This document shows positions 10,593-27,772 of a stretch of DNA of 34,503 bases, one piece after another (the stretch's first letter is position 1; each line of letters starts with the position of its first letter). A model generated the notes under the pieces. The model saw only the letters and a program-made list of their open reading frames with translations, made no database searches and had not been told where the DNA came from. The position numbers and the translations under genes are program-made. Origin of the DNA: Deltaproteobacteria bacterium (lineage in GTDB: Bacteria > Myxococcota_A > UBA9160 > SMWR01); the NCBI GenBank assembly GCA_019313605.1, contig JAFDAW010000004.1, positions 1 to 34,503 of the forward strand, in the 5' to 3' direction.

Positions 10593-10982
10593 TTGAACGC
10601 GTTGAGCGCGATATTGCTCTTGACCGCGTTTGCGGCGATTCGTCGGGGCGAACGCGAGAAACATCGCAATCTGATGCTGACGAATCTCGGCGTCTCGATC
10701 GTGTTTCTCGTCTGCTACGTGCTTCAGGTCTCTACGGTGGGTCACAAATCGTTCCCCGGAGACGATTGGGTGCGGGTGGTCTTCCTGACGATCCTCACGA
10801 CCCATACGATTCTCGCCGTTTGCCTCGTGCCTCTCGTGCTGCGAACGTTTTTCCTGGCCATTCGGCAGCGCTTCACCGAGCACCGGCGAATCGCCCGGAT
10901 CACCTTCCCAATCTGGCTTTACGTTTCCGTCACGGGTGTCGTGATCTACTGGATGGTGAATCACTTGCGGCCCTACGCGTGA
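10593..10982 (+). CDS. DUF420-family membrane protein (CtaM-like, associated with heme-copper oxidase maturation)
   Basis: 129 aa from a TTG start, four predicted TM helices. The pattern LNA.SAILLL.AF.AIRRGE...H...M is typical of DUF420. The frame stays open upstream to 10521 without a good start codon, so the N-terminus is uncertain. Confidence 0.7.
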   Translation: MNALSAILLLTAFAAIRRGEREKHRNLMLTNLGVSIVFLVCYVLQVSTVGHKSFPGDDWVRVVFLTILTTHTILAVCLVPLVLRTFFLAIRQRFTEHRRIARITFPIWLYVSVTGVVIYWMVNHLRPYA

Positions 10983-11001: not shown

Positions 11002-11445
11002 TCAGCGGAGGTCGGGGAACAACTCGACGCGCTGATCGGCTTTGGCCGCTTCTGCGACTTCGGCGAGATTCGAGTCGTTCGCCCAGTCTCGGAGGTGCTT
11101 GCTGAGTCGGCTCCACGTGCCGTGAAGTGGGCACGGAGTCACTTGATCGCAATTTCCCCAACCGAACGCGCAACGCCCTTCGGCTGGAAACGCGTCGATC
11201 GCGTCCAGGATTTCGATGAAGGGAATCTCGACAGGGGGGCGGGCGAGCGAAAAGCCTCCGCCCTGTCCTTTTCGCGAGACGAGCAGATTGGCGAGTACCA
11301 GGCGCCGCAGGATTTTGGACAGATAGGGGGCTGGAATTCCCGTAGCCTGCCCGAGATCGGTGGCGCGAATCTTTTTCCCCTCGGGGAGAATCGCAAGCGC
11401 CGACATGGCGCGAATCGCATATTCAGCGGTTTGGGAGATGAACAT
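11002..11445 (-). CDS. Rrf2-family transcriptional regulator (Fe-S type, NsrR/IscR-like), copy 1
   Basis: 147 aa from the ATG at 11445, preceded by GAGGAGcgacATG. wHTH signature MFISQTAEYAIRAM...YLSKILRRL. Cys cluster CAFGWGNCDQVTPCPLH (C-x6-C-x5-C-x2-H). The extra 17 N-terminal residues in the track ORF are Arg-rich and unlikely to be coding. Confidence 0.9.
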   Translation of the reverse strand: MFISQTAEYAIRAMSALAILPEGKKIRATDLGQATGIPAPYLSKILRRLVLANLLVSRKGQGGGFSLARPPVEIPFIEILDAIDAFPAEGRCAFGWGNCDQVTPCPLHGTWSRLSKHLRDWANDSNLAEVAEAAKADQRVELFPDLR

Positions 11446-11682
11446 GTCGCTCCTCGGCCGGCGCTGTACACGGCGCCGGATCCCTATCCCTACCATTATT
11501 GCACGCCAAAGTCATTAATGGACGTCGAAGTCGCCTGTTCCTGAACCGCCGTACGGCCGCACCTCCGCCAGCGCGCAATTGCCCCGAGTTCGGCGAGCCC
11601 CTACCTTGGTTTCCGATCCTCTTTTCTGGCCCCTCGTTCTGGGTGGCTAGGCCTTGACTGCCCCACCAGAGTTTTCTAAACA

Positions 11683-11710
11683 GACAAACAGATCTTTAGA
11701 TCCGTTTATC
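11683..11710. promoter_or_regulatory. Operator-like inverted repeat in the rrf2-1 / HCO divergent intergenic region
   Basis: GACAAACAGATC-TTTA-GATCCGTTTATC. Identical at 22 of 28 positions to the palindrome upstream of nirS (20321-20348). It lies just downstream of a possible promoter: TTGACT 11654-11659, 17-nt spacer, TAAACA 11677-11682. Confidence 0.5.
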
Positions 11711-11773: not shown

Positions 11774-13219
11774 ATGAACGGTGCAAGGGAGTCCGCAATG
11801 CCCAACCGGCGCGTGCACGAATCGCAAAGTCGGTTGGAGCTGCAATGCGCGGGTCAGTGGTTGGGCCTCGCTCTCGGGGTGCTCACACTCGCGGGGCTGT
11901 TTTCGCTCGTCGTCGTCATCGGGCGAATGCCGCCTTTCGATCGCCTGGTCACCGATCCGCTCTTCTTCAAGCGCGGCCTCGTCGTGCACGTCAACCTCGC
12001 TCTGGTTGCGTGGTTCTACTCGTTCGTGGCTGCGTTGTTGTTCTTTCTGCCCGGCCGGTCGGCACCGAGCCGACTCGCCCGACACTCCGTGCACGTCAGC
12101 GCGCTCGGCGTCGCGATGATGTTGCTCGCGGCGGGCATGCCCGGAAGCCAACCCGTTCTCTCCAACTACATCCCGATGATCGATCACTGGTTGTTCGGCG
12201 TCGGGCAGGTCTTTTTTGCGGCGGGTGTCTTGACGAGTTTCATCAGCCGACGGCTTCTCACGGCGCGCACTGCAAGCGGCGGATTCTTCGAGATCCCGGG
12301 TGCCGCACAGATGGGCCTGCGGAGCACAGCAGTCGTGCTGGTACTGGCCGCGCTCACCTTTGCGATCACCTCCGTACGCATCACGCCGGACCTTCCCATC
12401 GACGTCTACTACGAGCTGCTCTTCTGGGGCGGCGGACACGTGCTGCAACTCTGCTGCAGCATCGCGATGATCTCGGTCTGGCTGATCCTGCTCCACTCAT
12501 CGTTGGGTCGCTCCCCGATCAGCGAAAGAGCTGCCGCAATCCTATTCGGTGCGATGGTGGTGCCGTGGCTCGCATCTCCGATCCTCGCAATGCTCGGAAC
12601 CTGGAGCCCGGGCTACCGCGACGGTTTCACCTTCCTGATGCGCTGGGCGATCTTTCCCGTGCTCGGCCTGTTCATGGTTGCGTGCTTTCGATTGCTGCTC
12701 GTGGAGTTTCGCGCCGGGCACATCGGCCTCCGGTCGCTCTCGGATCCGCGAATTTCCGGCTTTCTCGTCAGCGCGCTGCTGACGCTGCTCGGATTCGCGC
12801 TGGGTGCGGGCATTCGCGGCTCTAACACGATGATCCCCGCCCACTACCACGCCTCGATCGGCGGCATCACCGCGGCGTTCATGACCGTCACCTACGTGAT
12901 GTTGCGCGCGTTTGGATTTTCGATTTCAACGCGCCGGCTGCAGCGCGCGGCAGCCTGGCAGCCCGCCGTCTACGGAGTGGGGCAGATGGTCTTTGCGAGC
13001 GGCTTCGCGATCGCGGGGATCTACGGAATGTCGCGGAAGGCCTACGGCGCTGAGCAGGCCGGCCGCGGACTCGGCGAAAGCATCGGACTCGGCGTGATGG
13101 GCGTCGGCGGACTGGTCGCGGTCGGCGGCGGGCTTCTCTTCCTCGGGGTCGTTGCCAGCATCTGGCGGCAGGGATCCGAGAGGCGGATTCAAACACTCAA
13201 ACCGATCACCGAAGCCTGA
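11774..13219 (+). CDS. Divergent heme-copper-oxidase subunit-I-like membrane protein lacking the CuB His-His pair
   Basis: 481 aa from the ATG at 11774 (GAGGA 5 nt upstream; the ATG at 11798 is also possible). About 12 TM helices. HCO landmarks retained: helix II His (LVVHVNLALVAWF), helix VI His (LFWGGGHVLQ), helix X His pair (NTMIPAHYHASIGG). No HH motif at the helix VII position. Confidence 0.7.
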   Translation: MNGARESAMPNRRVHESQSRLELQCAGQWLGLALGVLTLAGLFSLVVVIGRMPPFDRLVTDPLFFKRGLVVHVNLALVAWFYSFVAALLFFLPGRSAPSRLARHSVHVSALGVAMMLLAAGMPGSQPVLSNYIPMIDHWLFGVGQVFFAAGVLTSFISRRLLTARTASGGFFEIPGAAQMGLRSTAVVLVLAALTFAITSVRITPDLPIDVYYELLFWGGGHVLQLCCSIAMISVWLILLHSSLGRSPISERAAAILFGAMVVPWLASPILAMLGTWSPGYRDGFTFLMRWAIFPVLGLFMVACFRLLLVEFRAGHIGLRSLSDPRISGFLVSALLTLLGFALGAGIRGSNTMIPAHYHASIGGITAAFMTVTYVMLRAFGFSISTRRLQRAAAWQPAVYGVGQMVFASGFAIAGIYGMSRKAYGAEQAGRGLGESIGLGVMGVGGLVAVGGGLLFLGVVASIWRQGSERRIQTLKPITEA

Positions 13220-13230
13220 AGGAGGTACGG

Positions 13231-13386
13231 ATGAGCTCGAAAGAGCCTGACGGAAAAAAACCGCTGCAGAAGCTGATGGACAACCCCTGGCTGCTGCTGG
13301 TCCTTGGAATCGTGATCCCCACCCTTTCCTACACGGTATGGGGTTGGATCGAATTGTGGCTGGTTCCGCCAGCCGCACTTCCCTGA
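13231..13386 (+). CDS. Small single-TM protein, candidate subunit IIa (CbaD-like) of the B-type HCO
   Basis: 51-aa ORF, below the track cutoff: MSSKEPDGKKPLQKLMDNPWLLLVLGIVIPTLSYTVWGWIELWLVPPAALP. GAAGGAGG lies 5-6 nt upstream of the ATG. Its position directly before subunit II matches the IIa-II-I order of ba3-type operons. Confidence 0.45.
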   Translation: MSSKEPDGKKPLQKLMDNPWLLLVLGIVIPTLSYTVWGWIELWLVPPAALP

Positions 13387-13402: not shown

Positions 13403-13927
13403 ATGAGTATCTACAACCCGCCCGAAGGATGGCTCCAAGCTCCGAAAGGGCCCGAACGCCTCTGGATCGGTCTCGCGCTCATCTGGTGCATCGTGATGTC
13501 GCTCGCGATGCCGTACTGGCACTTCTACGGCAAACAGAACGCTTCAGGCGAGTCCTACAGGGTTTCCGCCGTCGACTATGGCACCCGTGTCCGACAGTTC
13601 GTCGAAGCAAACACGGTCGGAGAGGCATCCGGCATCCCGATCGTCGAGATCCCGCCGGGCGGCGATGGCTATCTGCTCGCGCGGATGTGGAGCTTCTACC
13701 CGGTCATCAAGATGAAGATGGGGCAGACCTACCGCCTGCACATCTCATCGATGGACCTTCAACACGGCTTCTCGCTCCAGCCGCTGAACATGAACTTTCA
13801 GGTGCTACCGGGCTATGACCACGTGCTGACCATCACACCGACCAGCACGGGTGTCTTCCCGATCATCTGCAACGAATTCTGCGGAATCGGACATCACATG
13901 ATGACCGGCCGCATCATCGTCGAATAG
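13403..13927 (+). CDS. HCO subunit II with complete CuA centre
   Basis: 174 aa with one TM helix and a cupredoxin domain. All CuA ligands are present: H(GFS)-x34-CNEFCGIGHHMM, i.e. H...C-x3-C-x3-H-x2-M. GGAGG RBS. Confidence 0.9.
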   Translation: MSIYNPPEGWLQAPKGPERLWIGLALIWCIVMSLAMPYWHFYGKQNASGESYRVSAVDYGTRVRQFVEANTVGEASGIPIVEIPPGGDGYLLARMWSFYPVIKMKMGQTYRLHISSMDLQHGFSLQPLNMNFQVLPGYDHVLTITPTSTGVFPIICNEFCGIGHHMMTGRIIVE

Positions 13928-13936
13928 GAGACTCTC

Positions 13937-15658
13937 ATGGCCAGCGCAGTCGAAAGCCTTCCCATCTTGGGAAATCACCCGACCGATCAGGTCCGAGCCT
14001 GCGACACGACGACACTGCCGGTCTGTCTGACAGCCCAGAAGTTCATCAAGCTGCACGCGGTTGCAGCAGTCGTCTTCCTGTTGATCGGCGGAATCGCGGC
14101 GCTGACCCTCGGGCTGACCCGATGGCCCGCCGTGCATCTGCTCGACGCACAGTGGTATTACCGCCTGCTCACGCTCCACGGCCTCAACATGTTGATCTTC
14201 TGGATCCTCAATTTTGAGATTGCCGTGCTCTACTTTGCGTCAACCGTGCTCTTGAATACCCGGCTCGCTTCGAAGAGCGCCGCGTGGGTCGGTCTGGTGA
14301 TGATGACCGTCGGAGCGATCATGGTTGATGCGGCGATCTTCGGAGGCAAAAGCGATGTGCTGATGACCTCCTACGTTCCGCTCAAGGCGAGCCCGTGGTT
14401 CTACCTCGGGATCATCCTCGTCGCCGTCGGCACACTGGTGGGCGTGATCAACTACTTCGCGACGATCTACATCGCGAAGCGAGATCAAACCTACAAGGGT
14501 TCGGTGCCGCTGGTGGTCTTCGGCGCCACCGCCGCCGCAATCATCGCGGTCGTCACGCTGCTTCACGGTGCGGTCGTGATGATCCCGACCCTGCTTTGGT
14601 CAATGGGAATCATCGAAAATATCGATCCAGCGTGGTACCGGATTACCTGGTGGGGGCTCGGCCACATGTCCCAGCAGGTCAACGTCTGCGCGATGGTTTC
14701 GATCTGGTATCTGCTCGGAACGCTGACGGTCGGCTCCAAGCCCCTGAACCAGGCTGTTTGTCGCGGCGCCTTCGTGCTCTACATCCTCTTCATCAACGTC
14801 GCGTCCGCCCATCACCTGCTGGTGGACCCCGGAACCGGATCCGTCTGGAAGATCTGGAATACCTCCTACGCGATGTATCTCGCGGTGCTCGCGTCGATGA
14901 TTCACGGATTCACGGTGCCGGCTTCGATCGAAGTCGCGATGCGCAAGAAGGGCTTCAATCGGGGGCTCTTCGGTTGGCTTGCGAACGCCCCCTGGAGCAA
15001 TCCCGGATTCTCGGGCTTCTTCCTCTCACTCGTGATCTTCGGCTTCGGCGGAGGCATCACGGGCGTCACACTGGGCACGCAACAGATCAACATCATGGCC
15101 CACAACACGCTGCGCATCCCCGGTCACTTCCACGTGACGGTGGTCGGTGGCACGACGTTGGCCTTCATGGCGATCACCTACTACATCGTTCCGCTGATCT
15201 TCCAGAAGGACTTCTACGCAAAGGCACTGTGCCGAATCCAGCCCTATCTGTTTGGAGGTGGGATCACCTTGATGGCGCTCGGCATGTCGTTTGCGGGTTC
15301 CTATGGCGTGCCGCGCCGGCATTGGGACATCGAGTTCACGGGCGGCCTGTTCGCGACCGGATTCGACGCGGGTGCGCACGTGATGCTCGGGATCATGGGA
15401 GTCGGTGCGGTGATCGCGTTCCTCGGCTTGCTCCTCTACTGCCTGCTGGTCGTCGCGGCCGTGTTCTTCGGTCGCCCGGTCGAAGGCAAGCCGATGGAGG
15501 CCTGGAACGAAGAGCCGCGAGGACAGATCGACGCCGAGGAGGTGGACGAGCACAAGACGCCGGGCACCCTGGTAATCGTGTTCGTCTTCCTGACAGCGTT
15601 TGCGGTCTACTACTTCGCGAATTGGATGTGGCTCAGCGATCTCTGGGAGGTTCGCTAG
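13937..15658 (+). CDS. B-family-like heme-copper oxidoreductase subunit I with Tyr->Gln at the cross-link position (NO-reductase-like)
   Basis: 573 aa. Landmarks: H81 (LTLHGLNMLIFW), CuB H243 in WWGLGHMSQQVNV, H292/H293 (ASAHHLLVDPG), H397/H399 (HNTLRIPGHFHVTVVGG), and GLFGWLANAPWSNPGF as in ba3-type enzymes. The residue at H+4, Tyr in O2 reductases, is Gln247 (14675-14677). Confidence 0.9.
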   Translation: MASAVESLPILGNHPTDQVRACDTTTLPVCLTAQKFIKLHAVAAVVFLLIGGIAALTLGLTRWPAVHLLDAQWYYRLLTLHGLNMLIFWILNFEIAVLYFASTVLLNTRLASKSAAWVGLVMMTVGAIMVDAAIFGGKSDVLMTSYVPLKASPWFYLGIILVAVGTLVGVINYFATIYIAKRDQTYKGSVPLVVFGATAAAIIAVVTLLHGAVVMIPTLLWSMGIIENIDPAWYRITWWGLGHMSQQVNVCAMVSIWYLLGTLTVGSKPLNQAVCRGAFVLYILFINVASAHHLLVDPGTGSVWKIWNTSYAMYLAVLASMIHGFTVPASIEVAMRKKGFNRGLFGWLANAPWSNPGFSGFFLSLVIFGFGGGITGVTLGTQQINIMAHNTLRIPGHFHVTVVGGTTLAFMAITYYIVPLIFQKDFYAKALCRIQPYLFGGGITLMALGMSFAGSYGVPRRHWDIEFTGGLFATGFDAGAHVMLGIMGVGAVIAFLGLLLYCLLVVAAVFFGRPVEGKPMEAWNEEPRGQIDAEEVDEHKTPGTLVIVFVFLTAFAVYYFANWMWLSDLWEVR

Positions 15659-15691: not shown

Positions 15692-16630
15692 ATGGCAACT
15701 TCCCCCAAACGACTCGAGGTTTTTCAAAACCTTCTGACGGGAGCCACCTTTCCGGCGTTCGCGCTGTCGCTGCTCGCCTGCTGGGTGATCTTCTTGATCG
15801 CAATGCTGCTGGCTCCCTCCAGCGCAGCTGGTCTCGGTGCGTTTGCGGAGGACTTTCGGATCTGGTGCTTCGGCTACGACCCGGCAACGGGTCGCACCGA
15901 AGTCGGCTACGTGATGTCGATGATCCTTCCGCAGTTCATGATCGCGGGCTTCATCGCGTACTTCTGGTGGGAGCCGCTGCGTGAACTCGCGAATCAGCCG
16001 CTGCGCATCGCCCGCCACTTTGGAGCGGCAGCACTCCTGGTAGCGGCTTCATCCGTCGGCTTTGCGCTCACCGCAGAACAGTCGCTGAAGGGGGAGCTCC
16101 CGTTTCCCGCCGAAGAATTGCGCACCGCCTACGAGGCGCCGCAATTCGCGCTCACCAATCAGCTCCGAGAAACGGTCGGTCCCGCTGCGTTCGAGGGCAA
16201 CGTGGTCGTTCTCACGGCCGTCTACGCCTCCTGCCCTCACACCTGCCCCCTGATCTTGACGCAAGCCAAGGCGGCGATCGCGGAGCTCTCGCCCGAGGAA
16301 CGCGCAGACCTGCGGGTGATCGCGGTGACGATGGATCCGGAGAACGATTCTCCCGATGTGCTCCAGAAGCTGGCAGAAAATCACGGCATGGAATCGCCGC
16401 TCTACAATCTAGTGACGGGTGCTTCCGCCGACGTGGAGCCACTGCTCGATCGGATGGAGATCGCGCGCCAGCGCGACCCCGAAACCGGTATCATCAACCA
16501 CGCGAATCTATTCCTCCTGATCGATCGAGAAGGGCGAGTTGCGTATCGACTCGGACTGGGCGAACGCCAACAGCGTTGGCTCACATCCGCTCTCAGGGTT
16601 CTGCTCCGCGAAGAAGCGGCATCGGGGTAA
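15692..16630 (+). CDS. SCO1/SenC-family copper chaperone with a ~130-aa three-TM N-terminal extension
   Basis: 312 aa. Thioredoxin-fold domain with CPHTCP (CxxxC) and a downstream conserved His (IINHANLFLLID). Three hydrophobic helices precede it. Confidence 0.8.
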   Translation: MATSPKRLEVFQNLLTGATFPAFALSLLACWVIFLIAMLLAPSSAAGLGAFAEDFRIWCFGYDPATGRTEVGYVMSMILPQFMIAGFIAYFWWEPLRELANQPLRIARHFGAAALLVAASSVGFALTAEQSLKGELPFPAEELRTAYEAPQFALTNQLRETVGPAAFEGNVVVLTAVYASCPHTCPLILTQAKAAIAELSPEERADLRVIAVTMDPENDSPDVLQKLAENHGMESPLYNLVTGASADVEPLLDRMEIARQRDPETGIINHANLFLLIDREGRVAYRLGLGERQQRWLTSALRVLLREEAASG

Positions 16631-16633
16631 GAG

Positions 16634-18793
16634 ATGGCACCGCCGGATACCACGCGCACGCCACTCAGCGTAGAATCGACGGCGGGTGGCGCGGGCGCGC
16701 GGCCATCGTCCGTGCGGGGTGTCGAGGGCGCACCAAACGATTTCGAATCGCCGCCGAGTGAGTCGCCGCTGCCCAAAGGAATCCTGCGTCAACTCGACAA
16801 GGGCTTCATCTATCTCGATCGCCTGCTCGCGCGCTGCGTCTCCAGCTCGCTGAACCCGATGCTTCACACCGGCGCGATCGCGGTGACAGCACTGTTCATC
16901 GCGACGGTGTCGGGCATCGTGCTGCTGATCTGGTACAAGCCCAGCGTCCACATGGCCTACGAATCGCTCGATGCAATGTCGCGATCTCCGCTCGGGTCGG
17001 GCCTGGTGCGTTCACTGCATCGATACAGCTCCGATGCGGCGGTTCTCTTCGGCTTAATCCACGCGTTTCGGGTTTTCTTCGAGCGGCGCTTCGACGGTGC
17101 GCGTTGGCTCGCGTGGGTGACCGGGGCGATCATGATGGGGCTGCTCTGGTTCATCGGCTGGACGGGCTATTGGTTGGTCTGGGATCTGCGCGCCCAATCC
17201 GTCGCGGTCGGCAGCGCAAAGATGTTGGACGTGCTCCCCATATTCACCGATCCGCTGAGTCGCTCCTTCGTTACGGATGAGAGCGTCAATTCCCTGCTCT
17301 TCTTCGTGGTCTTCTTCATCCACATGATCATTCCGCTCGCGATGGTGGTCGTGATGTGGCTGCACATCACCCGCCTCGCGCGCGCCCGCTACCTGACCAG
17401 CAAGGTGATGACGATCTGGGTGGTGGCACTGTTGCTCTTGATCTCCATCGCGTATCCGGCGACCAACGAAGCCCCCGCTCAGATGACTGCAAATGCCGAA
17501 TACTTCACGATGGATTGGTGGTACCTCTTCCCGATGCCGCTCATCGATCGGCTGAGTGCGGGAGCACTCTGGGGTCTGCTGATCGTCGGAAGCGCGGTCT
17601 CACTCGCGATCCCCTGGTTGTTGGCGAAAAAGCGCAAGCGGCCCGCTTCGGTGGTCGCCTCGCGCTGCAACGAATGCAAGAAGTGTTATACGGATTGCCC
17701 TTACGAGGCGATCGAAATGGTCGCGCGCACGGACGGAAACGACCGCTACCTCACCCAGGCTTCGGTGATCGATTCCAAGTGCGTCGCGTGTGGCATTTGC
17801 GCGGGATCGTGTGACACGGTGGGGATCGGTCTGGACTGGTTCTCGAGCATCGAGCAGCGAAGACTCATCGAATCGTGGATGAAGCAGGCCGAGCAAGCGC
17901 GAGAAACCGTTCACCTCGCTTTCGTCTGCGCGGAATCCGCGGGGGCGAAACTCGAGATCGATCCAGTCACCGGCCTCTGTGCCGAACTTCCCGGCTACCG
18001 CGCGCTGCGCGTTCCGTGTGCGGGTTGGGTCCAGCCGCTGATGATCGAACGTGCAATCCGACAGGGAGCCAGCGGCGTGTTGGTCGTAAGCTGCCCGCCC
18101 GATCGATGCATGTACCGCGAAGGCGCCGAGTGGGAGCGCCAGCGAATCGAGGGCCTCCGCGAACCCGCACTGCGCGTCGACAAGCTCGAGCCTGGGCAGG
18201 TACAGCTCGTAGCGCTCGATCGCACGCGCAAGGCGGACCTGATTCGCACGGCAGAGCGTTTTCGCACGGGCGAAGAGTCGCTTCAGACCCCGAGCCGCCC
18301 GCGCGCTCTCCACGCGGTGTCGGCAACGGTCTTGCTGATCGCATGTGCGGGAATACTCGGCCTGGGGAGTGATTTCGGTTACACGGCGCCCGGCATCGAC
18401 GGTTCCGAGTTCGTCGTGAGCCTGAAGCACCCGGGCCTGGCCAGCGAGAACTGCCGTGACCTCACGCCGGAAGAACTCGCGTCGACACCCATCCATATGC
18501 GCAAGGAGCGTGTCTGCGAGCGGATGCGGCCACCCGTTCGCCTTCGAGTGACCATCGATGGCACCACTGCACTCGAGACCAGCATTGCGCCGTCGGGCAT
18601 CTGGGAGGACGGCAACAGCGTGGCCGTCGAACGAATTCCGGTCGAGCCGGGTGAGCACCGCGTGAGCGTGGCGATCGGCGAGACAGTGGACCCCGACGAG
18701 TGGAACTTCGGCGAGGAGCAGACGATCACCTTTACCGATGAATCCCGCCGCGTCGTCGTCTTCGACCGCGTCGCGGGCTTCACCTGGCACTGA
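16634..18793 (+). CDS. Fusion protein: di-heme cytochrome b + 2x[4Fe-4S] ferredoxin + MvhD/FlpD-like domain + TM helix + C-terminal domain of unknown function
   Basis: 719 aa. Cytochrome b signatures: two H-x13-H pairs (SLHRYSSDAAVLFGLIH and IHMIIPLAMVVVMWLH), WFIGWTGYWLVW, and a PEWYF-like MDWWYLFP. Then CNECKKCYTDCP ... CVACGICAGSC. Then an MvhD/FlpD-like segment (FVCAESAG...VPCAGWV...VVSCPPDRCMY). Then TM AVSATVLLIACAGILGLG and a ~150-aa tail. Confidence 0.8.
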   Translation: MAPPDTTRTPLSVESTAGGAGARPSSVRGVEGAPNDFESPPSESPLPKGILRQLDKGFIYLDRLLARCVSSSLNPMLHTGAIAVTALFIATVSGIVLLIWYKPSVHMAYESLDAMSRSPLGSGLVRSLHRYSSDAAVLFGLIHAFRVFFERRFDGARWLAWVTGAIMMGLLWFIGWTGYWLVWDLRAQSVAVGSAKMLDVLPIFTDPLSRSFVTDESVNSLLFFVVFFIHMIIPLAMVVVMWLHITRLARARYLTSKVMTIWVVALLLLISIAYPATNEAPAQMTANAEYFTMDWWYLFPMPLIDRLSAGALWGLLIVGSAVSLAIPWLLAKKRKRPASVVASRCNECKKCYTDCPYEAIEMVARTDGNDRYLTQASVIDSKCVACGICAGSCDTVGIGLDWFSSIEQRRLIESWMKQAEQARETVHLAFVCAESAGAKLEIDPVTGLCAELPGYRALRVPCAGWVQPLMIERAIRQGASGVLVVSCPPDRCMYREGAEWERQRIEGLREPALRVDKLEPGQVQLVALDRTRKADLIRTAERFRTGEESLQTPSRPRALHAVSATVLLIACAGILGLGSDFGYTAPGIDGSEFVVSLKHPGLASENCRDLTPEELASTPIHMRKERVCERMRPPVRLRVTIDGTTALETSIAPSGIWEDGNSVAVERIPVEPGEHRVSVAIGETVDPDEWNFGEEQTITFTDESRRVVVFDRVAGFTWH

Positions 18794-18803
18794 GGAGTTT
18801 GAG

Positions 18804-19724
18804 ATGAGCGCCGATTCTCGGGTTCACATCGCACTCGGTGATGCTCGCAGCCGCTTCGGTTGGCTCGCGCGCGTGCAAGATTACGTCGCGCTCACCCGGC
18901 CGCGGGTCTTGACGCTGGTTCTCTTCACCGCGCCGCCCGCGATGGTGATGGGCCACGAAGGCTGGCCGAGCGCGGCTGTGATCCTCGGCGTCATCTTCGG
19001 GGCTGCACTGATCGGCGCGGGCTGCGGGGCCCTGAACGCGAGTTGGGAACGCGATCGGGATCGTCGAATGGCGCGAACCGAGAACCGGCCGCTGCCGGCC
19101 GGGCGCCTGACACTGAGCGAAGCGGTGATTTTCGGCTTCGCAATTTCAGCGCTCGGCGTCGCAGTGCTATTCGCGGCCGGCGGTTGGCTACCGGCCGCAA
19201 TCGGCGTCTTGACGCTCGTCCACTACCTGTTGATCTACACCATCTGGCTCAAGCCGCGCACGCCGCAAAACATCGTGATCGGTGGGGCAGCCGGCGCCGC
19301 AAGCCCGTTGATCGCAGATGCGGCAATCGATGGCCGGCTCGGCCTCTGGGGTTTCGTTCTCTTCCTGATCGTGTTCGTCTGGACGCCGCCGCACTTCTGG
19401 GCAATTGCCTTGTACCGCAAGCGGGAGTACGCGGCTGCGGGCTTCCCGATGCTGCCCAATGTGCTGGGCGACCGCGCAACCCGCAAACACATGCTCGCCT
19501 ATGCGATCGGCCTGATCCCGGTCGCGCTGATCCCGTGGATCGGCGGCGAACTCAGCTTCGTTTACGCATTGACGGCGGTGATTGCAGGGGGCGGCTTCAT
19601 CGCGAGCATTGCGCGCTCGATGCGCGTCGAATCCCCCAAACAGGATCGGCGCGTCTTCAAGGTTTCGATCTTCTTCCTCTTCGCGATCTTCGCAGAGATG
19701 CTCGTCGAGTTGACGCTGCGTTGA
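18804..19724 (+). CDS. ctaB: Protoheme IX farnesyltransferase (heme O synthase)
   Basis: 306 aa from the ATG at 18804 (GAGGAG RBS). UbiA-family motifs are present (NASWERDRDRRMARTENRPLPAG; WTPPHFWAIALYRKREY). The track start at 18738 overlaps the upstream gene. Confidence 0.9.
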   Translation: MSADSRVHIALGDARSRFGWLARVQDYVALTRPRVLTLVLFTAPPAMVMGHEGWPSAAVILGVIFGAALIGAGCGALNASWERDRDRRMARTENRPLPAGRLTLSEAVIFGFAISALGVAVLFAAGGWLPAAIGVLTLVHYLLIYTIWLKPRTPQNIVIGGAAGAASPLIADAAIDGRLGLWGFVLFLIVFVWTPPHFWAIALYRKREYAAAGFPMLPNVLGDRATRKHMLAYAIGLIPVALIPWIGGELSFVYALTAVIAGGGFIASIARSMRVESPKQDRRVFKVSIFFLFAIFAEMLVELTLR

Positions 19725-20527: not shown

Positions 20528-22189
20528 ATGAGGCGTGTTCGCGCTTCGGTTCATCGATTGTCGCAACAGCCCGATTGGTACAAAGCGTTTCCGGGAATTC
20601 ACTGGCTCGTACTGATCAGCTTGACGTTCGTGCTGGCCGGCACCGCGCCCGCCGCAACGGCTCCCACTCTGAGCGAAAAAGAGATGGCGGACGCGGAGTT
20701 CATCTACTTCGACCGCTGCTCGGGATGTCACGGTGCGCTGCGCAAGGGAGCGACCGGGCCGAACATCGCTGACGAAGCCATGCTCAAGAAGCCGCTCAGC
20801 GAACTCGAGACGACCATCTTCGAAGGCACCGACGCGGGCATGCCGGGCTGGGGCCGAACCGGCGAACTCACCACCGAAGAGTCGGCGCTGATGGCCAGGT
20901 ATGTGCAGATTCCCGCTCCGACACCGCCCGAGATGGGGCTCAAGGCCATGAAGGCGACCCACAAGCTCTACGTGCCGGTGGCGGATCGCCCGAGTAAACC
21001 CCAACACAAGCGGGACATCGAAAACTACTTCGGAGTCATCCTGCGCGATGTTGGCCAGGGCGCGATCATCGACGGCGACACCAAGGAACTCGTCAGCATC
21101 CACGAAACTGGGCACGCCGTCCACATCTTTCGCGCTTCTGCGACCGGCCGCTACTTCTACACGATCGGGCGCGACGGCAAGGTCACGCTGATAGATCTCT
21201 ACGAGAAGAAGCCGAAGGTCGTCGCCGAATCCCGCGTGTGTCTGGACGCGCGTTCGATCGAAGTTTCGAAGTACAAAGGACCCAAGGGCGACTTCGTCGA
21301 CAAGTACGCGCTGGTGGGTTGTTACTGGCCGCCGCAGATGGTGGTGCTCGACGGGCAAACCCTGGAACCAATCAAGGTCATCTCGACCCGGTCTTCAACC
21401 TACGACACCAACGAGTATCACCCGGAGCCGCGCGTAGCGACGATCATCGCATCCCACCACGCACCCGAGTGGGTCGTCGCGATCAAGGAAACGGGCATGG
21501 TCTGGTTGGTGGATTACTCCGACCTGAACAACCTGAGCATGACCCAGATCGCAACCGAGCGATTCCTACACGACGGAGGTTTCGACGCGACGGGACGCTA
21601 TCTGCTGATCGCCGCCAACATGCGCGACCAGATGGTCGTCGTCGACACCAAGGAGCGGAAGTTCGTCACCAAGTTCGAGACGGGCACCAAGCCGCATCCC
21701 GGCCGCGGAGCCAACTGGGTCGATCCCGAGTACGGACCGGTCAGCGCGACCACCCACCTGGGTGAGGGCATGATCGTCGTATACGGATCGGATCCCGAGG
21801 GCCATCCGGAGCACGCCTGGAAGGTGGTGCGCGAAGAGGAGACCGGAGGACCCGGACTTTTCTTGAAGACCCATCCCAAGAGCGACTACATCTGGACCGA
21901 TGCCACGCTCTCCAAGGAAGAGGGCGCCAATCAGCAGATCTGCGTGTTCAAGAAGGCCGACTTCGCTGCGGGCGCTCATTGTTGGCAGGCCGCCGATCAC
22001 GGGAAGGTCGTGCACTTCGAATACAACAAGGCGGGCGACGAAGTCTGGGCCGCCGTCTGGGACAAAGAAGGTGAGCTGATCATCTACGACGACAAGACGC
22101 TGAAAGAGAAGGCACGAATCAAGGCGGATTGGTTGGTCACACCGACGGGCAAGTGGAACGTCTACAACACGGTTCACGACATCTACTAA
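20528..22189 (+). CDS. nirS: Cytochrome cd1 nitrite reductase
   Basis: 553 aa. Strong RBS (GAGGAGGAG), signal peptide, heme c site FDRCSGCHGALRKGATGPNI, then a d1-type eight-bladed propeller domain. Confidence 0.95.
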   Translation: MRRVRASVHRLSQQPDWYKAFPGIHWLVLISLTFVLAGTAPAATAPTLSEKEMADAEFIYFDRCSGCHGALRKGATGPNIADEAMLKKPLSELETTIFEGTDAGMPGWGRTGELTTEESALMARYVQIPAPTPPEMGLKAMKATHKLYVPVADRPSKPQHKRDIENYFGVILRDVGQGAIIDGDTKELVSIHETGHAVHIFRASATGRYFYTIGRDGKVTLIDLYEKKPKVVAESRVCLDARSIEVSKYKGPKGDFVDKYALVGCYWPPQMVVLDGQTLEPIKVISTRSSTYDTNEYHPEPRVATIIASHHAPEWVVAIKETGMVWLVDYSDLNNLSMTQIATERFLHDGGFDATGRYLLIAANMRDQMVVVDTKERKFVTKFETGTKPHPGRGANWVDPEYGPVSATTHLGEGMIVVYGSDPEGHPEHAWKVVREEETGGPGLFLKTHPKSDYIWTDATLSKEEGANQQICVFKKADFAAGAHCWQAADHGKVVHFEYNKAGDEVWAAVWDKEGELIIYDDKTLKEKARIKADWLVTPTGKWNVYNTVHDIY

Positions 22190-22206
22190 CCGAATTCGAA
22201 AGCAAG

Positions 22207-22237
22207 AACCCGCCCGGCTTCGCGCCGGGTGGGTTTT
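22207..22237 (+). terminator. Intrinsic terminator after nirS
   Basis: Stem AACCCGCCCGGC / GCCGGGTGGGTT (one G-U pair) with loop TTCGC, running into TTTT. It begins 18 nt after the nirS stop. Confidence 0.7.
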
Positions 22238-22274
22238 CGATCCGCTCCTCAATGGACGGAAAGTAGGAGGTTCC

Positions 22275-22922
22275 ATGGTTTCCAAAAGCGTTTCTGACCG
22301 CAGGCTGATCCGCCCGTTTCTCGGCCGCTCCGCGATGGGCTTTGCTCTTCTGGTACTCGCGTTTCTGATTCCGAATTGGGCTACCGCCAATGGACAGCAC
22401 GCTTTCGTTGGCTACCAGAAGTGCAGGACCTGCCATAAGAAGACAGAGATCGGCAATCAATACGGCGCCTGGCTCGAATCCAGACACGCGAAGGCCTACG
22501 AGACGCTCGGAACCGAGAAGGCGAAGAAGTGGGGCGCCGAAGCCGGCGTAGACAATCCCCAAACTGACGACCGCTGCATCAAGTGTCATTCGACGGCTCA
22601 CGGCGTTCCGGACGAAAGGGTCTCGAGGAAATTCGATCGGACGGCCGGCGTGCAATGCGAGTCGTGCCACGGCGCGGGTAAGGACTACAAGAAGAAGAAG
22701 ATCATGATGGACCGCGACAAGGCGCTCGAGAAAGGCCTGATCATACCGACCGCGGAACTCTGCACCGGATGCCACAACGACGAGAGTCCCGCATGGGATG
22801 AGAAGGCCTACACGCTGACCGATGGAAGCACGGCCGGATTCGACTTCGAGCAGGCAGTGAAAAAGATCGCTCACCCAGTTCCCGAAGGCTACGATCCAAG
22901 CGCTACTGGAGGGGCTGACTGA
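22275..22922 (+). CDS. Periplasmic tetraheme c-type cytochrome (c554-like family)
   Basis: 215 aa. AGGAGG RBS, signal peptide, four CxxCH motifs (CRTCH, CIKCH, CESCH, CTGCH). Confidence 0.8.
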   Translation: MVSKSVSDRRLIRPFLGRSAMGFALLVLAFLIPNWATANGQHAFVGYQKCRTCHKKTEIGNQYGAWLESRHAKAYETLGTEKAKKWGAEAGVDNPQTDDRCIKCHSTAHGVPDERVSRKFDRTAGVQCESCHGAGKDYKKKKIMMDRDKALEKGLIIPTAELCTGCHNDESPAWDEKAYTLTDGSTAGFDFEQAVKKIAHPVPEGYDPSATGGAD

Positions 22923-22924
22923 GA

Positions 22925-23545
22925 ATGGCGGGCGACGATCACGATTTAGACGGCGATCGTCACCCTCCCATTCAGCTCACGATCTGGGCGGTGATCGCTC
23001 TCGCGGTCGTCGTCATCGCGGGGCTCTTCACGGTTCGACTCGAGCACCAGCCCGAGACGACACGCGACTATCCGCCCCGGCCGCAGATCGCGGACGGCGA
23101 GGCGATCCTGCTGCCTGCTCCCGAGATCCTCGATGACTATCTGCCCTGCAACGACTGCCATGACGATGTGACACGAGAAGAGGGGCCGGTCCCGCGCGAA
23201 CTCGAATTCGAACACGAAGACACGAAGCTCGCGCATGGAAACCTCTGGTGCCGGCACTGCCACGACGCCGTGGACCCGAACAACCTCCGCCTGGCTGACG
23301 CGTCTTTGGTTCCTTTCGAAGACTCCTGGAAGCTCTGCACCCAATGTCACGGCAAGAAGCTTCCGGAGTGGCGCGCGGGGGTTCATGGCAAGGTGACCGG
23401 AAATTGGAGGGGCGATCGGGAGTACGTGACCTGCGTCTTCTGCCACGAGCCCCATACACCGCCGTTCGTGCCCATCGAAGGAGAGCCGAGGCCCAGGCGC
23501 CCCGAGGAAATCGTATTGCGGACAGAGCCCCTAGGAGAAGAGTGA
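22925..23545 (+). CDS. Membrane-anchored tetraheme c-type cytochrome (cytochrome c3/ActA/NrfB-like partner of the NrfCD-type module)
   Basis: 206 aa. N-terminal TM helix LTIWAVIALAVVVIAGLFTV. Four CxxCH motifs (CNDCH, CRHCH, CTQCH, CVFCH). It lies immediately upstream of the NrfC-like gene. Confidence 0.75.
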   Translation: MAGDDHDLDGDRHPPIQLTIWAVIALAVVVIAGLFTVRLEHQPETTRDYPPRPQIADGEAILLPAPEILDDYLPCNDCHDDVTREEGPVPRELEFEHEDTKLAHGNLWCRHCHDAVDPNNLRLADASLVPFEDSWKLCTQCHGKKLPEWRAGVHGKVTGNWRGDREYVTCVFCHEPHTPPFVPIEGEPRPRRPEEIVLRTEPLGEE

Positions 23546-23546
23546 A

Positions 23547-24415
23547 GTGGGAATTTTCAGACGGAACAAAGAAGCGCGAGCGCCGAAAGATGGCGCACCG
23601 AAGGAAAGCTCGCGCCGCGACTTCCTCAAGACAGCTGCGACCGTCGGAGCGGGAGCCGCGGTTGGCGCGCCCGCCATCGCGAGCGCGATGGATTTCGACT
23701 TCGAAACCTTCATGCAAAAGAACTTCCGCGAGCTCTCGGATGAGGAGCTGCAAGGGGTCATCGAGCGACTCGAGCGCAAGTACTCGGATAAGTACGGCAA
23801 GGACGTCAGCATGTCGGCCATCGGTCCGATGGACGGCGTGCTCTACGGCTACGGGTTGGACATCTCACGCTGCATCGGTTGCCGGAAATGCGTGTCCGCG
23901 TGCGTGGTTATTACGAGCACAAGGAGGTTCCCGCAGAGGGGAAGTTCTACGTCCCGATCGCCTGCCAGCAATGCGAGGATGCGCCGTGTACTACGGTCTG
24001 CCCGACTGGCGCGACCTGGCAAGAATCCGACGGGATCATCGTGATCGACTACGACTGGTGCATTGGGTGTCGCTACTGCATGGCGGCGTGCCCCTACGGC
24101 GCGCGCCACTTCAACTGGGGCGAGCCCAATCTTCCGGCTGAAGACGTCAACCCGAACATGCACATCCTTGGCAACAAGCCGCGCACGCGAGGCGTGGTCG
24201 AGAAATGCACGTTCTGTATCCAACGGGTGCGCGAGGGCCGCATGCCGGCTTGCCACGAAGCCTGCCCGGTCGGCGCGCGCAAGTTCGGAAACCTGCTCGA
24301 TCCGGATAGCGAAATCCGATACCTGCTGGACCACAAGCGGACCTTCGTATTGAAAGCAGAGCTCGAGACCCACCCGAAGTTCTTCTATTTCTGGGGAACG
24401 GAGGGGCGGAGTTGA
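23547..24415 (+). pseudogene. NrfC/PsrB/ActB-like Tat-exported 4x[4Fe-4S] protein with a frame disruption near 23904-23908
   Basis: The frame-0 ORF (23547-24044) gives the Tat signal SRRDFLKTAATVGAGAAV and cluster 1, [11 protein letters not shown]. The remaining clusters ([30 protein letters not shown]...CHEACP) are in the frame-2 ORF (23879-24415). Total length is 869 nt (3n+2), so one nucleotide appears to be missing. Confidence 0.8.
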
Positions 24416-24461
24416 GGCAGCAGCGAGAATCCGTTCGAACGGCGCGACTTCGAGGGGCATC

Positions 24462-25706
24462 GTGCTGATCCGCAACCTGAAGCTCTTCGCCCACTTCGTC
24501 AGAGGAAGCCTTCTCGCTGTCGCCAGCGGTAGCAGGGGTTACTACATCTGGCTGCTGGCATTGGGGATCCTGATCGCGCTCGGCGCGACCGCATATGGCA
24601 ATCAGCTCACCCACGGACTGATCACTTCACACATGCGCGACCAGGTTTCCTGGGGATTCTACATCGGAAATTTCGCGTTTCTGGTCGGGGTGGCGGCGGC
24701 AGCCGTCGTTCTGGTCGTTCCCGCCTACGTCTACAATTGGGGACCGATCCGCGACGTCGTCTTGATTGGCGAGTTGGCTTCAGTTGCGGCGATCGTCATG
24801 TGCATGCTCTTCGTCACGGTAGACCTCGGTCGGCCCGAGTTCGTCTGGCATCTGATGCCGATCGTCGGAACACCGAACTTCCCGCACTCGCTGCTGACCT
24901 GGGACATTCTCGTCCTGAATCTCTATTTCCTGCTCAACTGGTTCGTCGTCACCTACATCCTGTTCACGGCCTTCAAGGGCCGAAAATACAACCCGCGAAT
25001 CTTGTTGCCGATCATCTTCCTCTCGATTCCGTTCGCGATCGGAATCCACACCGTGACGGCGTTTCTCTTCACGGGCCTCAAGGGCCGCGCCTTCTGGCAC
25101 ACCGCTTTGCTGGCGCCTCGCTTCATCGCGGGTGCGTTCTGCTCGGGGCCCGCATTGATCTTCTTGATCTTCCGGGTGCTGCGAAAGTTCGGCCGAATGC
25201 AGATTTCGGACACGGCGCTCTTCAAGATCGGCGAATTGCTCGCCTACGCGATGGCGATCAATCTGTTCTTCGTCGGGACGGAAGTCTTCACCGAATTCTA
25301 CGCCCAGACTGCCCACACCGTTCACGCCCGCTACCAGTGGTTCGGACTCCACGGAATGTCGAGCATCGCCATCTACACCTGGGCCGCGCTCTGCTTCAAT
25401 GTGCTGGCCTTGATCATCTTCATGGTGCCGAAATTCAGGCTCAACATGAACATCCTCACTTTGGGTTGCGTATTCTCGTTTTCCGGGATCTACATCGAAA
25501 AGGGAATGGGACTACTGCTGCCGGGATTCACACCGGACTCACTGGGGGAAATCTACGAGTACACACCGAGCCTGAACGAGGTGACGGTCGGCATCGGCAT
25601 CTGGGCCGTCGGAGCGTTGCTCTTCACATGGATGGCGCGAGTCGCGATCGCCATCACGGCCGGTGACCTGCGCCACGCGACTGTGAGTCGGCAAATCGGG
25701 CCCTAG
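24462..25706 (+). CDS. NrfD/PsrC/ActC-family integral membrane quinone-interacting subunit
   Basis: 414 aa from a GTG start (GAGGGG upstream). About 10 TM helices with an N-terminal region typical of the NrfD family (YYIWLLALGILIALGATAYGNQLTHGL..SHMRDQVSWGFYIGNFAF). Confidence 0.85.
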   Translation: MLIRNLKLFAHFVRGSLLAVASGSRGYYIWLLALGILIALGATAYGNQLTHGLITSHMRDQVSWGFYIGNFAFLVGVAAAAVVLVVPAYVYNWGPIRDVVLIGELASVAAIVMCMLFVTVDLGRPEFVWHLMPIVGTPNFPHSLLTWDILVLNLYFLLNWFVVTYILFTAFKGRKYNPRILLPIIFLSIPFAIGIHTVTAFLFTGLKGRAFWHTALLAPRFIAGAFCSGPALIFLIFRVLRKFGRMQISDTALFKIGELLAYAMAINLFFVGTEVFTEFYAQTAHTVHARYQWFGLHGMSSIAIYTWAALCFNVLALIIFMVPKFRLNMNILTLGCVFSFSGIYIEKGMGLLLPGFTPDSLGEIYEYTPSLNEVTVGIGIWAVGALLFTWMARVAIAITAGDLRHATVSRQIGP

Positions 25707-25713
25707 CAGGATG

Positions 25714-26163
25714 CTAGGGGTCGCTCGGTTTCGCGAAGCGGCGAACGAAGGCGACCATGTGCCAGATCTTGTCATCCGTCCAGGCGTAATCGGACTCTGG
25801 ACCAAACGCGGGCATCGCGCAGCGCTCCCCGCCGCCCATCAAGATCTGGTAGAAGAGTTCTCCATCGGTTCGGCTCGCCATGTATTTGGCATCCGTCAAG
25901 TTTGCGGGCCTGACGAGTTCGCCGGACGCGGCCGCCTCGGCGCCGCTACCCGTCCCATCGATCCCGTGGCAACGGGAGCACTTTCCCTTGAATTGCCGCT
26001 GGTAGTAGCGGATCTCGCTCTCTTCTAGCGTCACCGGATTCTTCGCGGCCTTCACGTCGTCGGGTACGTCATCTCGAGCGGATACGGTGGTGCACGCGAT
26101 TCCGGCGAACCAGGTTGTCAGGGCGAACGCTGCGAAGCACTGAACGGCGCTGCTCTTCGACAT
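25714..26163 (-). CDS. Monoheme class I c-type cytochrome (NirC/c55x-like)
   Basis: 149 aa with a signal peptide, a single CSRCHG heme site and a distal Met region CAMPAFG. GGAGGA RBS. It lies 27 nt downstream of nirN on the same strand. Confidence 0.7.
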   Translation of the reverse strand: MSKSSAVQCFAAFALTTWFAGIACTTVSARDDVPDDVKAAKNPVTLEESEIRYYQRQFKGKCSRCHGIDGTGSGAEAAASGELVRPANLTDAKYMASRTDGELFYQILMGGGERCAMPAFGPESDYAWTDDKIWHMVAFVRRFAKPSDP

Positions 26164-26190
26164 AGCGAGTCCTCCGCAATTCTCAGGCGC

Positions 26191-27636: not shown

Positions 27637-27772
27637 GCTCGGCTCCTTGGTTTCTGCCACCGCACTCTCTGGTATCAGACCCGCGGGGTCAATAGGCGGG
27701 GTGGTGAGGATTGGCCCCAAGACTGTGTAAGCTCCGACGCGAAATGGTCCAGCTGAATTCAGGGAATCCCAG

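Follow-up and report, generated by a model that had tools for sequence, protein, structure and literature searches.

A heme-copper oxidase subunit-I paralog that lacks the helix-VII His-His pair accompanies eNOR-type nitric oxide reductase gene clusters

The eNOR enzymes of the heme-copper oxidase (HCO) superfamily produce N2O and are common in wastewater, sediment, and iron-oxidizing denitrifiers. They are derived from the B family, and NO reduction has been demonstrated for the eNOR family (Murali et al. 2024, PMC11214002); a Gln residue at the position of the cross-link Tyr is their published diagnostic (PMC8756737). In the published classifications, the three metal-binding His residues are conserved in all HCO families, with gNOR as the sole partial exception and the first HCO family in which an active-site His was found to be replaced (Murali et al., PMC11214002). 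Here, we describe a gene at positions 11774 to 13219 (forward strand) of contig JAFDAW010000004.1 from a Deltaproteobacteria bacterium, of which a stretch of 34,503 nucleotides, hereafter called the window, was analyzed. The gene encodes a 481-amino-acid (aa) paralog of HCO subunit I with 12 transmembrane (TM) helices, which keeps H72, H357, H359, H222, Q225, and R421/K422 and lacks the His-His pair of helix VII. It is located in an operon for an eNOR-type enzyme.

This family has probably been noticed by name already. A May 2026 preprint on Ferrigenium straubiae named one gene of an eNOR operon "eNOR scaffold protein ... of unknown function" and called such a gene "a very common observation" (bioRxiv 10.64898/2026.01.22.701106). 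In IMG, this gene (2878407321) is annotated as "hypothetical," and KEGG assigns it to K02274 (cox subunit I); under denitrifying conditions its product was detected in the proteome, and its transcript level was ~70 to 390 transcripts per million (bioRxiv 10.64898/2026.01.22.701106). The Ferrigenium eNOR operon also carries genes for heme O synthase, SCO1, and two cytochrome b/Fe-S proteins, which is the architecture of three paralog-bearing betaproteobacterial loci in our survey (L033 to L035). From annotation and context, the Ferrigenium protein is probably a member of the paralog family; the preprint gives neither a ligand analysis nor a function for it. The initial annotation of the window had recognized no characterized family in the paralog. 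This view holds in that no NCBIfam model matched the protein and the Pfam COX1 model (PF00115) matched residues 27 to 426 only at a borderline score (40.9 bits; cutoff, 34.8), but it must be modified in that the family has probably been named in the preprint. Our literature search for HCO homologs without CuB ligands and for an eNOR structure returned nothing beyond the preprint, no analysis of the ligand pattern or function of the family was found in the literature searched, and the main text of Murali et al. (PMC11214002) does not mention the gene.

The assignment of the protein to HCO subunit I, made in the initial annotation, was borne out at the levels of sequence, profile, and fold. A BLASTP comparison of the paralog with the neighboring subunit I gave an E value of 6e-21 with 27% identity across 459 aa. 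A profile-profile comparison (hhalign) of 94 family members (alignment A1) with 22 partner subunit-I proteins gave a probability of 100% and an E value of 1e-42 over the full length, which was the closest profile match. The single paralog sequence retrieved nothing relevant from the PDB sequences. The family profile, searched against all PDB sequences, retrieved subunit I of the Thermus thermophilus ba3 oxidase (PDB 1EHK, 3S8F) alone, with E values of 3.5e-12 to 2e-9, and no A-, C-, or NOR-type chain at E ≤ 1. An AlphaFold2 model built from alignment A1 was confident (predicted local distance difference test [pLDDT] score, 89.7; predicted template modeling score [pTM], 0.91) and consisted of 12 long helices. 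In a Foldseek search with this model, ba3 subunit I ranked first (TM score, 0.65 to 0.74), followed by A-type, cbb3 (C), and cNOR subunit I (probability, 1.0). Because of the profile matches, the confident model, and the Foldseek ranking, the predicted protein is placed as a genuine, divergent member of the HCO fold, nearest to the B-family/eNOR branch. Close homologs of the paralog are 473 to 481 aa long and cover 98 to 100% of the 481-aa form; thus, the start codon is likely ATG 11774 or the Met 8 codons downstream. A longer reading from a TTG at 11654 is possible.

To map the ligands, two independent alignments were used, one by hhalign against the partner family and the other of the family hidden Markov model (HMM) against ba3. 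Both alignments equated H72 (in LVVHVNL) with ba3 H72 in helix II, H222 (in WGGGHVLQL) with ba3 H233 in helix VI, and H357 and H359 (in IPAHYHAS) with ba3 H384 and H386 in helix X, in agreement with the His positions given in the initial annotation. By alignment, the bis-His ligands of the low-spin heme (H72 and H359) and the proximal His of the high-spin heme (H357) are present. In addition, R421/K422 are aligned with the RR pair found in the partner subunit I and with R449/R450 of ba3, which bind the heme propionates in that oxidase. In contrast, both alignments place the two helix-VII His residues (H292/H293 in the partner, H282/H283 in ba3) on P269/I270/L271, and the positions of I270 and L271 are aliphatic in all relatives. 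The flanking His residues of the paralog are H241 and H316, with none within residues 242 to 315, as first reported; H222 is the only one of the three metal-binding His residues that is left. The position of the cross-link Tyr (ba3 Y237, partner Q247), four residues after H222, is L226 in the paralog and F, V, A, L, or I among its relatives.

The protein also departs from each of the other described HCO types. It has no active-site Tyr at His+4 as in the A and B families; only one of the three metal-binding His residues of eNOR and neither its Gln at the Tyr position nor its K-channel-like residues; neither the His-His pair nor the Glu at His+4 of cNOR, qNOR, and nNOR; and no Asp or Glu conserved in helix VII of the family that would correspond to the His-Asp-His site of gNOR. 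Among the K-path residues of ba3, Y244, Y248, and T312 correspond to I233, L237, and M289, and the sole match is T286 at ba3 S309. A 9-residue deletion ahead of helix X removes the loop that carries the invariant H389 of the partner (the ba3 H376 region). Proton-pumping HCOs have conserved K- (or D-) channel residues and a His/Asp cluster above the propionates of the high-spin heme; the substitutions at I233, L237, and M289 and the lost loop set the paralog apart from them. Judged by alignment, the paralog retains the heme-binding core and has lost the features of the binuclear site, of proton delivery, and of pumping, and a three-His CuB or FeB site cannot form, as the initial annotation had argued. 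Because the His pair, the proton path, and the H376 loop are lost, the sequence argues against a role as a canonical O2 or NO reductase or as a proton pump.

Compared with eNOR subunit I, the paralog shares the fold, 12 TM helices, heme ligands, and operon, together with the motifs W-G-x-G-H-x-x-Q, IP-x-H-[FY]-H, QP, and G-x-Y-G-x-x-R-[RK]. It is ~90 aa shorter and lacks the helix-VII His pair, the Gln at the Tyr position, the K-channel tyrosines, and the H389/ba3-H376 loop. The ba3 oxidase, which is the only solved protein found by the family profile and the best structural match, has H282/H283, Y237, Y244, Y248, T312, and H376, for which the paralog has no functional equivalents. The gNOR family provides a precedent for an HCO that departs from the three-His site. 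However, one His is replaced in gNOR by Asp, which is itself a ligand, and the enzyme is proposed to be catalytic, whereas two His residues are replaced in the paralog by nonligating aliphatic residues.

The loss of the His pair is a trait of the family rather than an accident of a single sequence. In an exhaustive search with HMMER against 1.84 billion cluster representatives, with family clusters defined at 50% identity, 1145 matches were obtained at E ≤ 1e-3, 822 at E ≤ 1e-10, and 367 at E ≤ 1e-30; the family is therefore large, with at least 367 clusters at 50% identity. Conservation was counted in the 131 of the best 150 cluster representatives that were at least 420 aa long. H72 and H357 were conserved in 131/131, and H222 and H359 were conserved in 130/131; the next His column was H138 (93/131), with no other above 71%. 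Helix VII contained P264 (112/131) and, after four residues, P269 (103/131), followed by aliphatic residues. Other near-invariant residues were R51, N131, Y132, P134, E214 (119/131), W218, G221, Q225, W236, M289 (130/131), S333, Y358, Q404, R421, and K422. The same ligand pattern was repeated in the 32 genome loci described below and in 29 metagenome open reading frames (ORFs) that were retrieved independently through a search for the partner enzyme, and the four His residues and R421/K422 were invariant in relatives down to ~31% identity. Because the axial ligands and the R/K pair are invariant over such deep divergence, the sequences argue for two stably bound hemes. This large and widespread branch with both heme sites and no binuclear center would mean that the HCO scaffold has been reused beyond O2 and NO reduction.

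These data also bear on the idea that the paralog is a decaying, functionless duplicate of subunit I. The defining catalytic residues are indeed lost. However, the ORFs are intact, the same residues are invariant, and the family comprises hundreds of 50%-identity clusters, so this explanation is effectively refuted. The family is spread over Myxococcota, Planctomycetota, Verrucomicrobiota, Gammaproteobacteria, and Betaproteobacteria, the probable Ferrigenium ortholog is expressed as a protein, and the HMM scores of the two families are cleanly separated. Paralogs scored 308 to 581 bits with their own model and below 100 bits with the subunit-I model; true subunit-I proteins scored 781 to 1033 bits with their own model and 122 to 196 bits with the paralog model, without overlap. 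The family is thus real, uncurated, and a distinct variant within the HCO superfamily. Its members carry generic public names ("hypothetical," "cbb3-type cytochrome c oxidase subunit I," and "cytochrome c oxidase subunit 1"), and such oxidase names can inflate the counts of oxidases and NO reductases in metagenomes.

A displaced set of ligands was sought as well. Among the 131 representatives, helices VII and VIII lacked any conserved His, Cys, Asp, or Glu residue from which a metal site could be rebuilt. By alignment, the conserved candidates besides the four His residues were only E214, M289, and M370. A relocated binuclear site was rejected on the basis of the alignments, because the partner subunit I has equivalents of M370 and probably of M289 and because M289 aligns with ba3 T312, beside [MI]313 of the partner (A312-M313) in helix VIII, a position that in ba3 lies in mid-channel and not at the metal site. 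E214 would lie two helical turns from H222, toward the outer surface. These positions weigh on one role suggested in the initial annotation, in which the paralog would be an alternative catalytic subunit sharing subunit II, with a metal site made of H222 and non-His ligands such as M289, E214, and Q225. The conservation of M289 and E214 and the location of the gene directly upstream of IIa-II in the window are in its favor. The mid-channel and outward positions of these two residues, the lack of conserved ligating residues in helices VII and VIII, and the distance of the gene from subunit II in other lineages make such a catalytic subunit improbable.

The partner of the paralog differs from what had been assumed. 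The neighboring subunit I (13937 to 15658, forward strand), which has H81, H243, H292/H293, and H397/H399, had been regarded as a B-type oxidase. In this protein, Q247 of the GHMSQQ motif (H243-M-S-Q-Q247) aligns with ba3 Y237, and the three metal-binding His residues are present. The motif GHxSQQ[VI]NV occurred in every partner subunit I of the related loci, together with SAHHL and GHFH. Because GHxSQQ carries Gln in place of Tyr, the neighboring subunit I is predicted to reduce NO as an eNOR-type enzyme rather than O2 as an ordinary B-type oxidase. The role of the paralog bears on the supply of electrons and cofactors to eNOR.

The gene order in the window confirmed that the paralog is the first gene of its operon, divergent from a gene for an Rrf2-family regulator and upstream of the IIa-II-I genes. 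All following genes lie on the forward strand. They encode a subunit-IIa-like ORF (13231 to 13386; 51 aa with a single TM helix, conserved in most related loci), a CuA-type subunit II with a COX2 cupredoxin domain (13403 to 13927), the eNOR-type subunit I, a SCO1/SenC copper chaperone (15692 to 16630), a cytochrome b/Fe-S fusion protein (16634 to 18793), and heme O synthase (CyoE/CtaB; 18738 to 19724). The cytochrome b/Fe-S protein of 719 aa has an N-terminal cytochrome b domain with two H-x13-H pairs, two further TM helices, a 2x[4Fe-4S] ferredoxin domain, and an FlpD/MvhD-like domain. The genes are tightly packed, with gaps of 11 nt and 3 to 33 nt.

The association with eNOR genes was examined in both directions. 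In a survey of 32 genome loci, all from metagenome-assembled genomes (MAGs) and with relatives at 31 to 92% identity, the loci belonged to Myxococcota/"Deltaproteobacteria," Planctomycetota, Opitutaceae, Gammaproteobacteria, and Betaproteobacteria. An eNOR-type subunit I was found beside the paralog in 23 of them, and the usual cluster was IIa-II-I-(heme O synthase)-SCO1-cytochrome b/Fe-S. Among the other nine loci, eight ended at a contig edge near the paralog, and three of these eight kept a cytochrome b/Fe-S gene. The remaining paralog, from a Planctomycetota MAG with full 8-kb flanks (L023:7935-9323), stood alone, with no eNOR genes within 8 kb; it was flanked by genes for acyl-CoA dehydrogenase, biotin carboxylase, and asparagine synthase. 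The paralog was directly upstream of IIa in Myxococcota, Planctomycetota, and Verrucomicrobiota, 1.5 to 2 kb upstream in Gammaproteobacteria, right after subunit I in four loci (L066, L071, L076, and L092), and after the cytochrome b/Fe-S gene in Betaproteobacteria.

In the reverse survey, 80 metagenome loci were chosen for a GHxSQQ subunit I, and 29 of them contained the paralog. Placement within an eNOR operon, as described for the "eNOR scaffold protein," was thus found in the window, in the 23 genome loci, and in these 29 metagenome loci. Where flanks were ample (at least 3.5 kb upstream and at least 7 kb downstream; n = 23), the paralog was present in 14 of the 23 eNOR-type clusters (~60%), and the cytochrome b/Fe-S protein was present in all 23. 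No obvious substitute, such as a cytochrome c, was seen in the paralog-less cluster L080. Because the gene is syntenic with eNOR clusters, yet present in only ~60% of them, the paralog accompanies the eNOR/cytochrome b module specifically but not obligatorily.

Gene fusions pointed to a partner for the paralog. A search seeded with one betaproteobacterial member gave more than 7000 matches among 8000 scored candidates. Fusions of cytochrome b with the paralog made up at least 12 of the 120 top-ranked betaproteobacterial clusters, and P0233 is another such fusion. These proteins of ~750 to 765 aa have cytochrome b (PF00033, PF13631) at the N terminus and the paralog at the C terminus; examples are P0362 (L036:10001-12295), P0233, P0325, P0338, and P0351. 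The fusion in L036 is an uninterrupted ORF on a 290-kb contig. The same locus encodes an FNR-like protein from which the cytochrome b domain has been lost. In the unfused betaproteobacterial operons (L033 to L035), an 80-aa ORF, II, I, heme O synthase, and SCO1 are followed by a protein with cytochrome b, Fer2, FAD, and NAD domains, a 173-aa ORF, a protein with cytochrome b, 4Fe-4S, and FlpD domains, the paralog, and a 269-aa protein. In these unfused loci, the start of the paralog precedes the stop codon of the cytochrome b/Fe-S gene ahead of it by 8 nt. Because the fusion to a transmembrane diheme cytochrome b is recurrent and topologically sensible, and because the paralog is translationally coupled to a cytochrome b/Fe-S gene, the sequences argue for a redox partnership between the paralog and cytochrome b. 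Betaproteobacteria also have a second cytochrome b copy, which is the one fused to the Fer2-FAD-NAD domains. The conserved 173-aa protein (L033:7881-8402) had no Pfam match. The 269-aa protein (L033:11413-12222) overlaps the stop codon of the paralog and gave a subthreshold match of 23.5 bits to COX15/CtaA. The 90%-identity cluster of P0353 (459 aa) also holds 270-aa members, one of which is named "heme A synthase" in its source; these members may be a clustering artifact that involves the overlapping downstream gene.

We tentatively propose, with somewhat less than even confidence, that the paralog is an electron-relay accessory of the eNOR/cytochrome b module. It would derive from a B-family/eNOR-like subunit I in which the binuclear catalytic center (heme plus CuB/FeB) was lost. 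A bis-His low-spin heme on H72 and H359 is most likely still bound, together with a second heme on H357, whose distal side would offer only H222 and Q225. As an accessory of the NO-reductase module made up of IIa/II/I, SCO1, heme O synthase, and the cytochrome b/Fe-S protein, the paralog would pass electrons from heme to heme near the outer membrane face. The electrons would move between the NO reductase and the transmembrane cytochrome b module, which would connect to Fe-S or flavin domains in the cytoplasm. In this organism, NO made by NirS would probably induce the operon by way of the divergent Rrf2 regulator. The initial annotation had suggested an alternative catalytic subunit, an NO-binding or detoxifying heme protein, or a membrane NO sensor. 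Because the K-channel residues and the ba3-H376 loop are lost, the fusions are to cytochrome b, and the gene is present in only ~60% of the clusters, the sequence data point more toward a noncatalytic accessory tied to the cytochrome b/Fe-S proteins.

Several observations weigh against the relay. It cannot be obligatory, because only 14 of the 23 eNOR-type clusters with ample flanks carry the paralog, although all of them carry the cytochrome b/Fe-S gene. In the window and its closest relatives, the paralog is at the operon end opposite the cytochrome b gene. A pure relay would not require the invariant H222 and Q225, unless H222 serves as the sixth ligand of a heme. The rare fusions of the paralog with a UbiA/heme O synthase domain (P0243) or with TPR repeats (P0239 and P0254) point toward assembly. 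Finally, in the AlphaFold2 model of the cytochrome b fusion P0362, the cytochrome b part had a pLDDT below 50, the pTM was 0.64, and no interface was visible.

The invariance of H222 and Q225, despite the loss of the partner His residues, would fit a protein in which a five-coordinate second heme with a distal His/Gln pocket transforms NO (or O2) without a second metal or serves as a membrane sensor. The hydrophobic replacement of the His pair would leave a small apolar pocket, and the context of Rrf2, nirS, and eNOR is related to NO. Nonetheless, there is no output domain for a sensor, to which the cytochrome b fusions are also ill suited; there are neither proton pathway residues nor a second metal for N-N coupling, and a complete NO reductase is already encoded in the same cluster. 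We consider such a heme-only ligand binder unlikely.

The main rival to the electron relay is an assembly or maturation scaffold, a subunit-I look-alike that would pass heme (O, A, or As) or a folding intermediate to the eNOR subunit I and remain outside the working enzyme. The operon is rich in biogenesis genes (SCO1 and heme O synthase, with DUF420 upstream), the UbiA/heme O synthase fusion occurs in one cluster and the TPR fusions in two, the overlapping next gene in Betaproteobacteria has the weak COX15/CtaA match, and the paralog is optional. The label "scaffold" is that of the Ferrigenium preprint, which offers no evidence behind it. The strict conservation of the bis-His site, the proximal His, and the R/K propionate pair suggests permanent hemes rather than transient cargo, and cytochrome b, to which the paralog is frequently fused, is a redox partner. 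On balance, the scaffold appears doubtful. In a special form of it, the paralog would act as a platform resembling NifEN, in which heme O from the synthase of the operon, bound at the former active site, is converted or passed on to eNOR as heme A(s) without O2, with the cytochrome b/Fe-S or flavin partners as the electron sink. The analogy with NifEN and NifDK concerns function alone, and NifEN has no sequence or structural relationship to the paralog described here; in both cases, a gene cluster that encodes the catalytic subunit also encodes a paralog of it from which some of the active-site ligands are missing. This platform is a highly speculative proposal that we consider very unlikely; if true, it would explain how the heme-A-dependent eNOR matures under anoxic conditions, an issue that the Ferrigenium preprint brings up.

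The electron-relay reading includes regulation by the divergent Rrf2-family gene (11002 to 11496, reverse strand). Because homologs align with its product only from residues 16 to 19 onward, the true start is probably M18 at 11445, and the ORF is probably overcalled by 17 codons. The protein showed weak similarity to the NsrR, IscR, and RirA models, all below the cutoffs, and it may plausibly sense NO. An inverted repeat, CCATTATTG-N11-CATTAATGG, at 11493 to 11521, just upstream of the revised Rrf2 start, is a candidate Rrf2 operator; related GTCCATTGA...TCAATGGAC repeats were found in the Rrf2-paralog intergenic regions of five other loci (L047, L007, L045, L042, and L021). In addition, a 32-nt imperfect palindrome, TAAACAGACAAACAGATCTTTAGATCCGTTTA, lies at 11677 to 11708, ~65 nt 5' of the paralog ATG. 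It was dropped as a conserved operator, being common only to the closest relative (L002). Directly upstream of the Rrf2 gene, a DUF420 membrane protein is encoded at 10593 to 10982 (forward strand), and it is conserved at this place in L003 and L015; DUF420 is presumably the family of the oxidase-biogenesis factor CtaM.

Downstream of the operon, the window encodes the cytochrome cd1 nitrite reductase NirS (20528 to 22189, forward strand), two multiheme cytochrome c ORFs (22275 to 23545), an NrfD-like membrane protein (24462 to 25706), and a second cd1-like protein (26191 to 27915, reverse strand). Because of these genes, which span 20528 to 27915, the eNOR operon and its paralog are located in a denitrification island.

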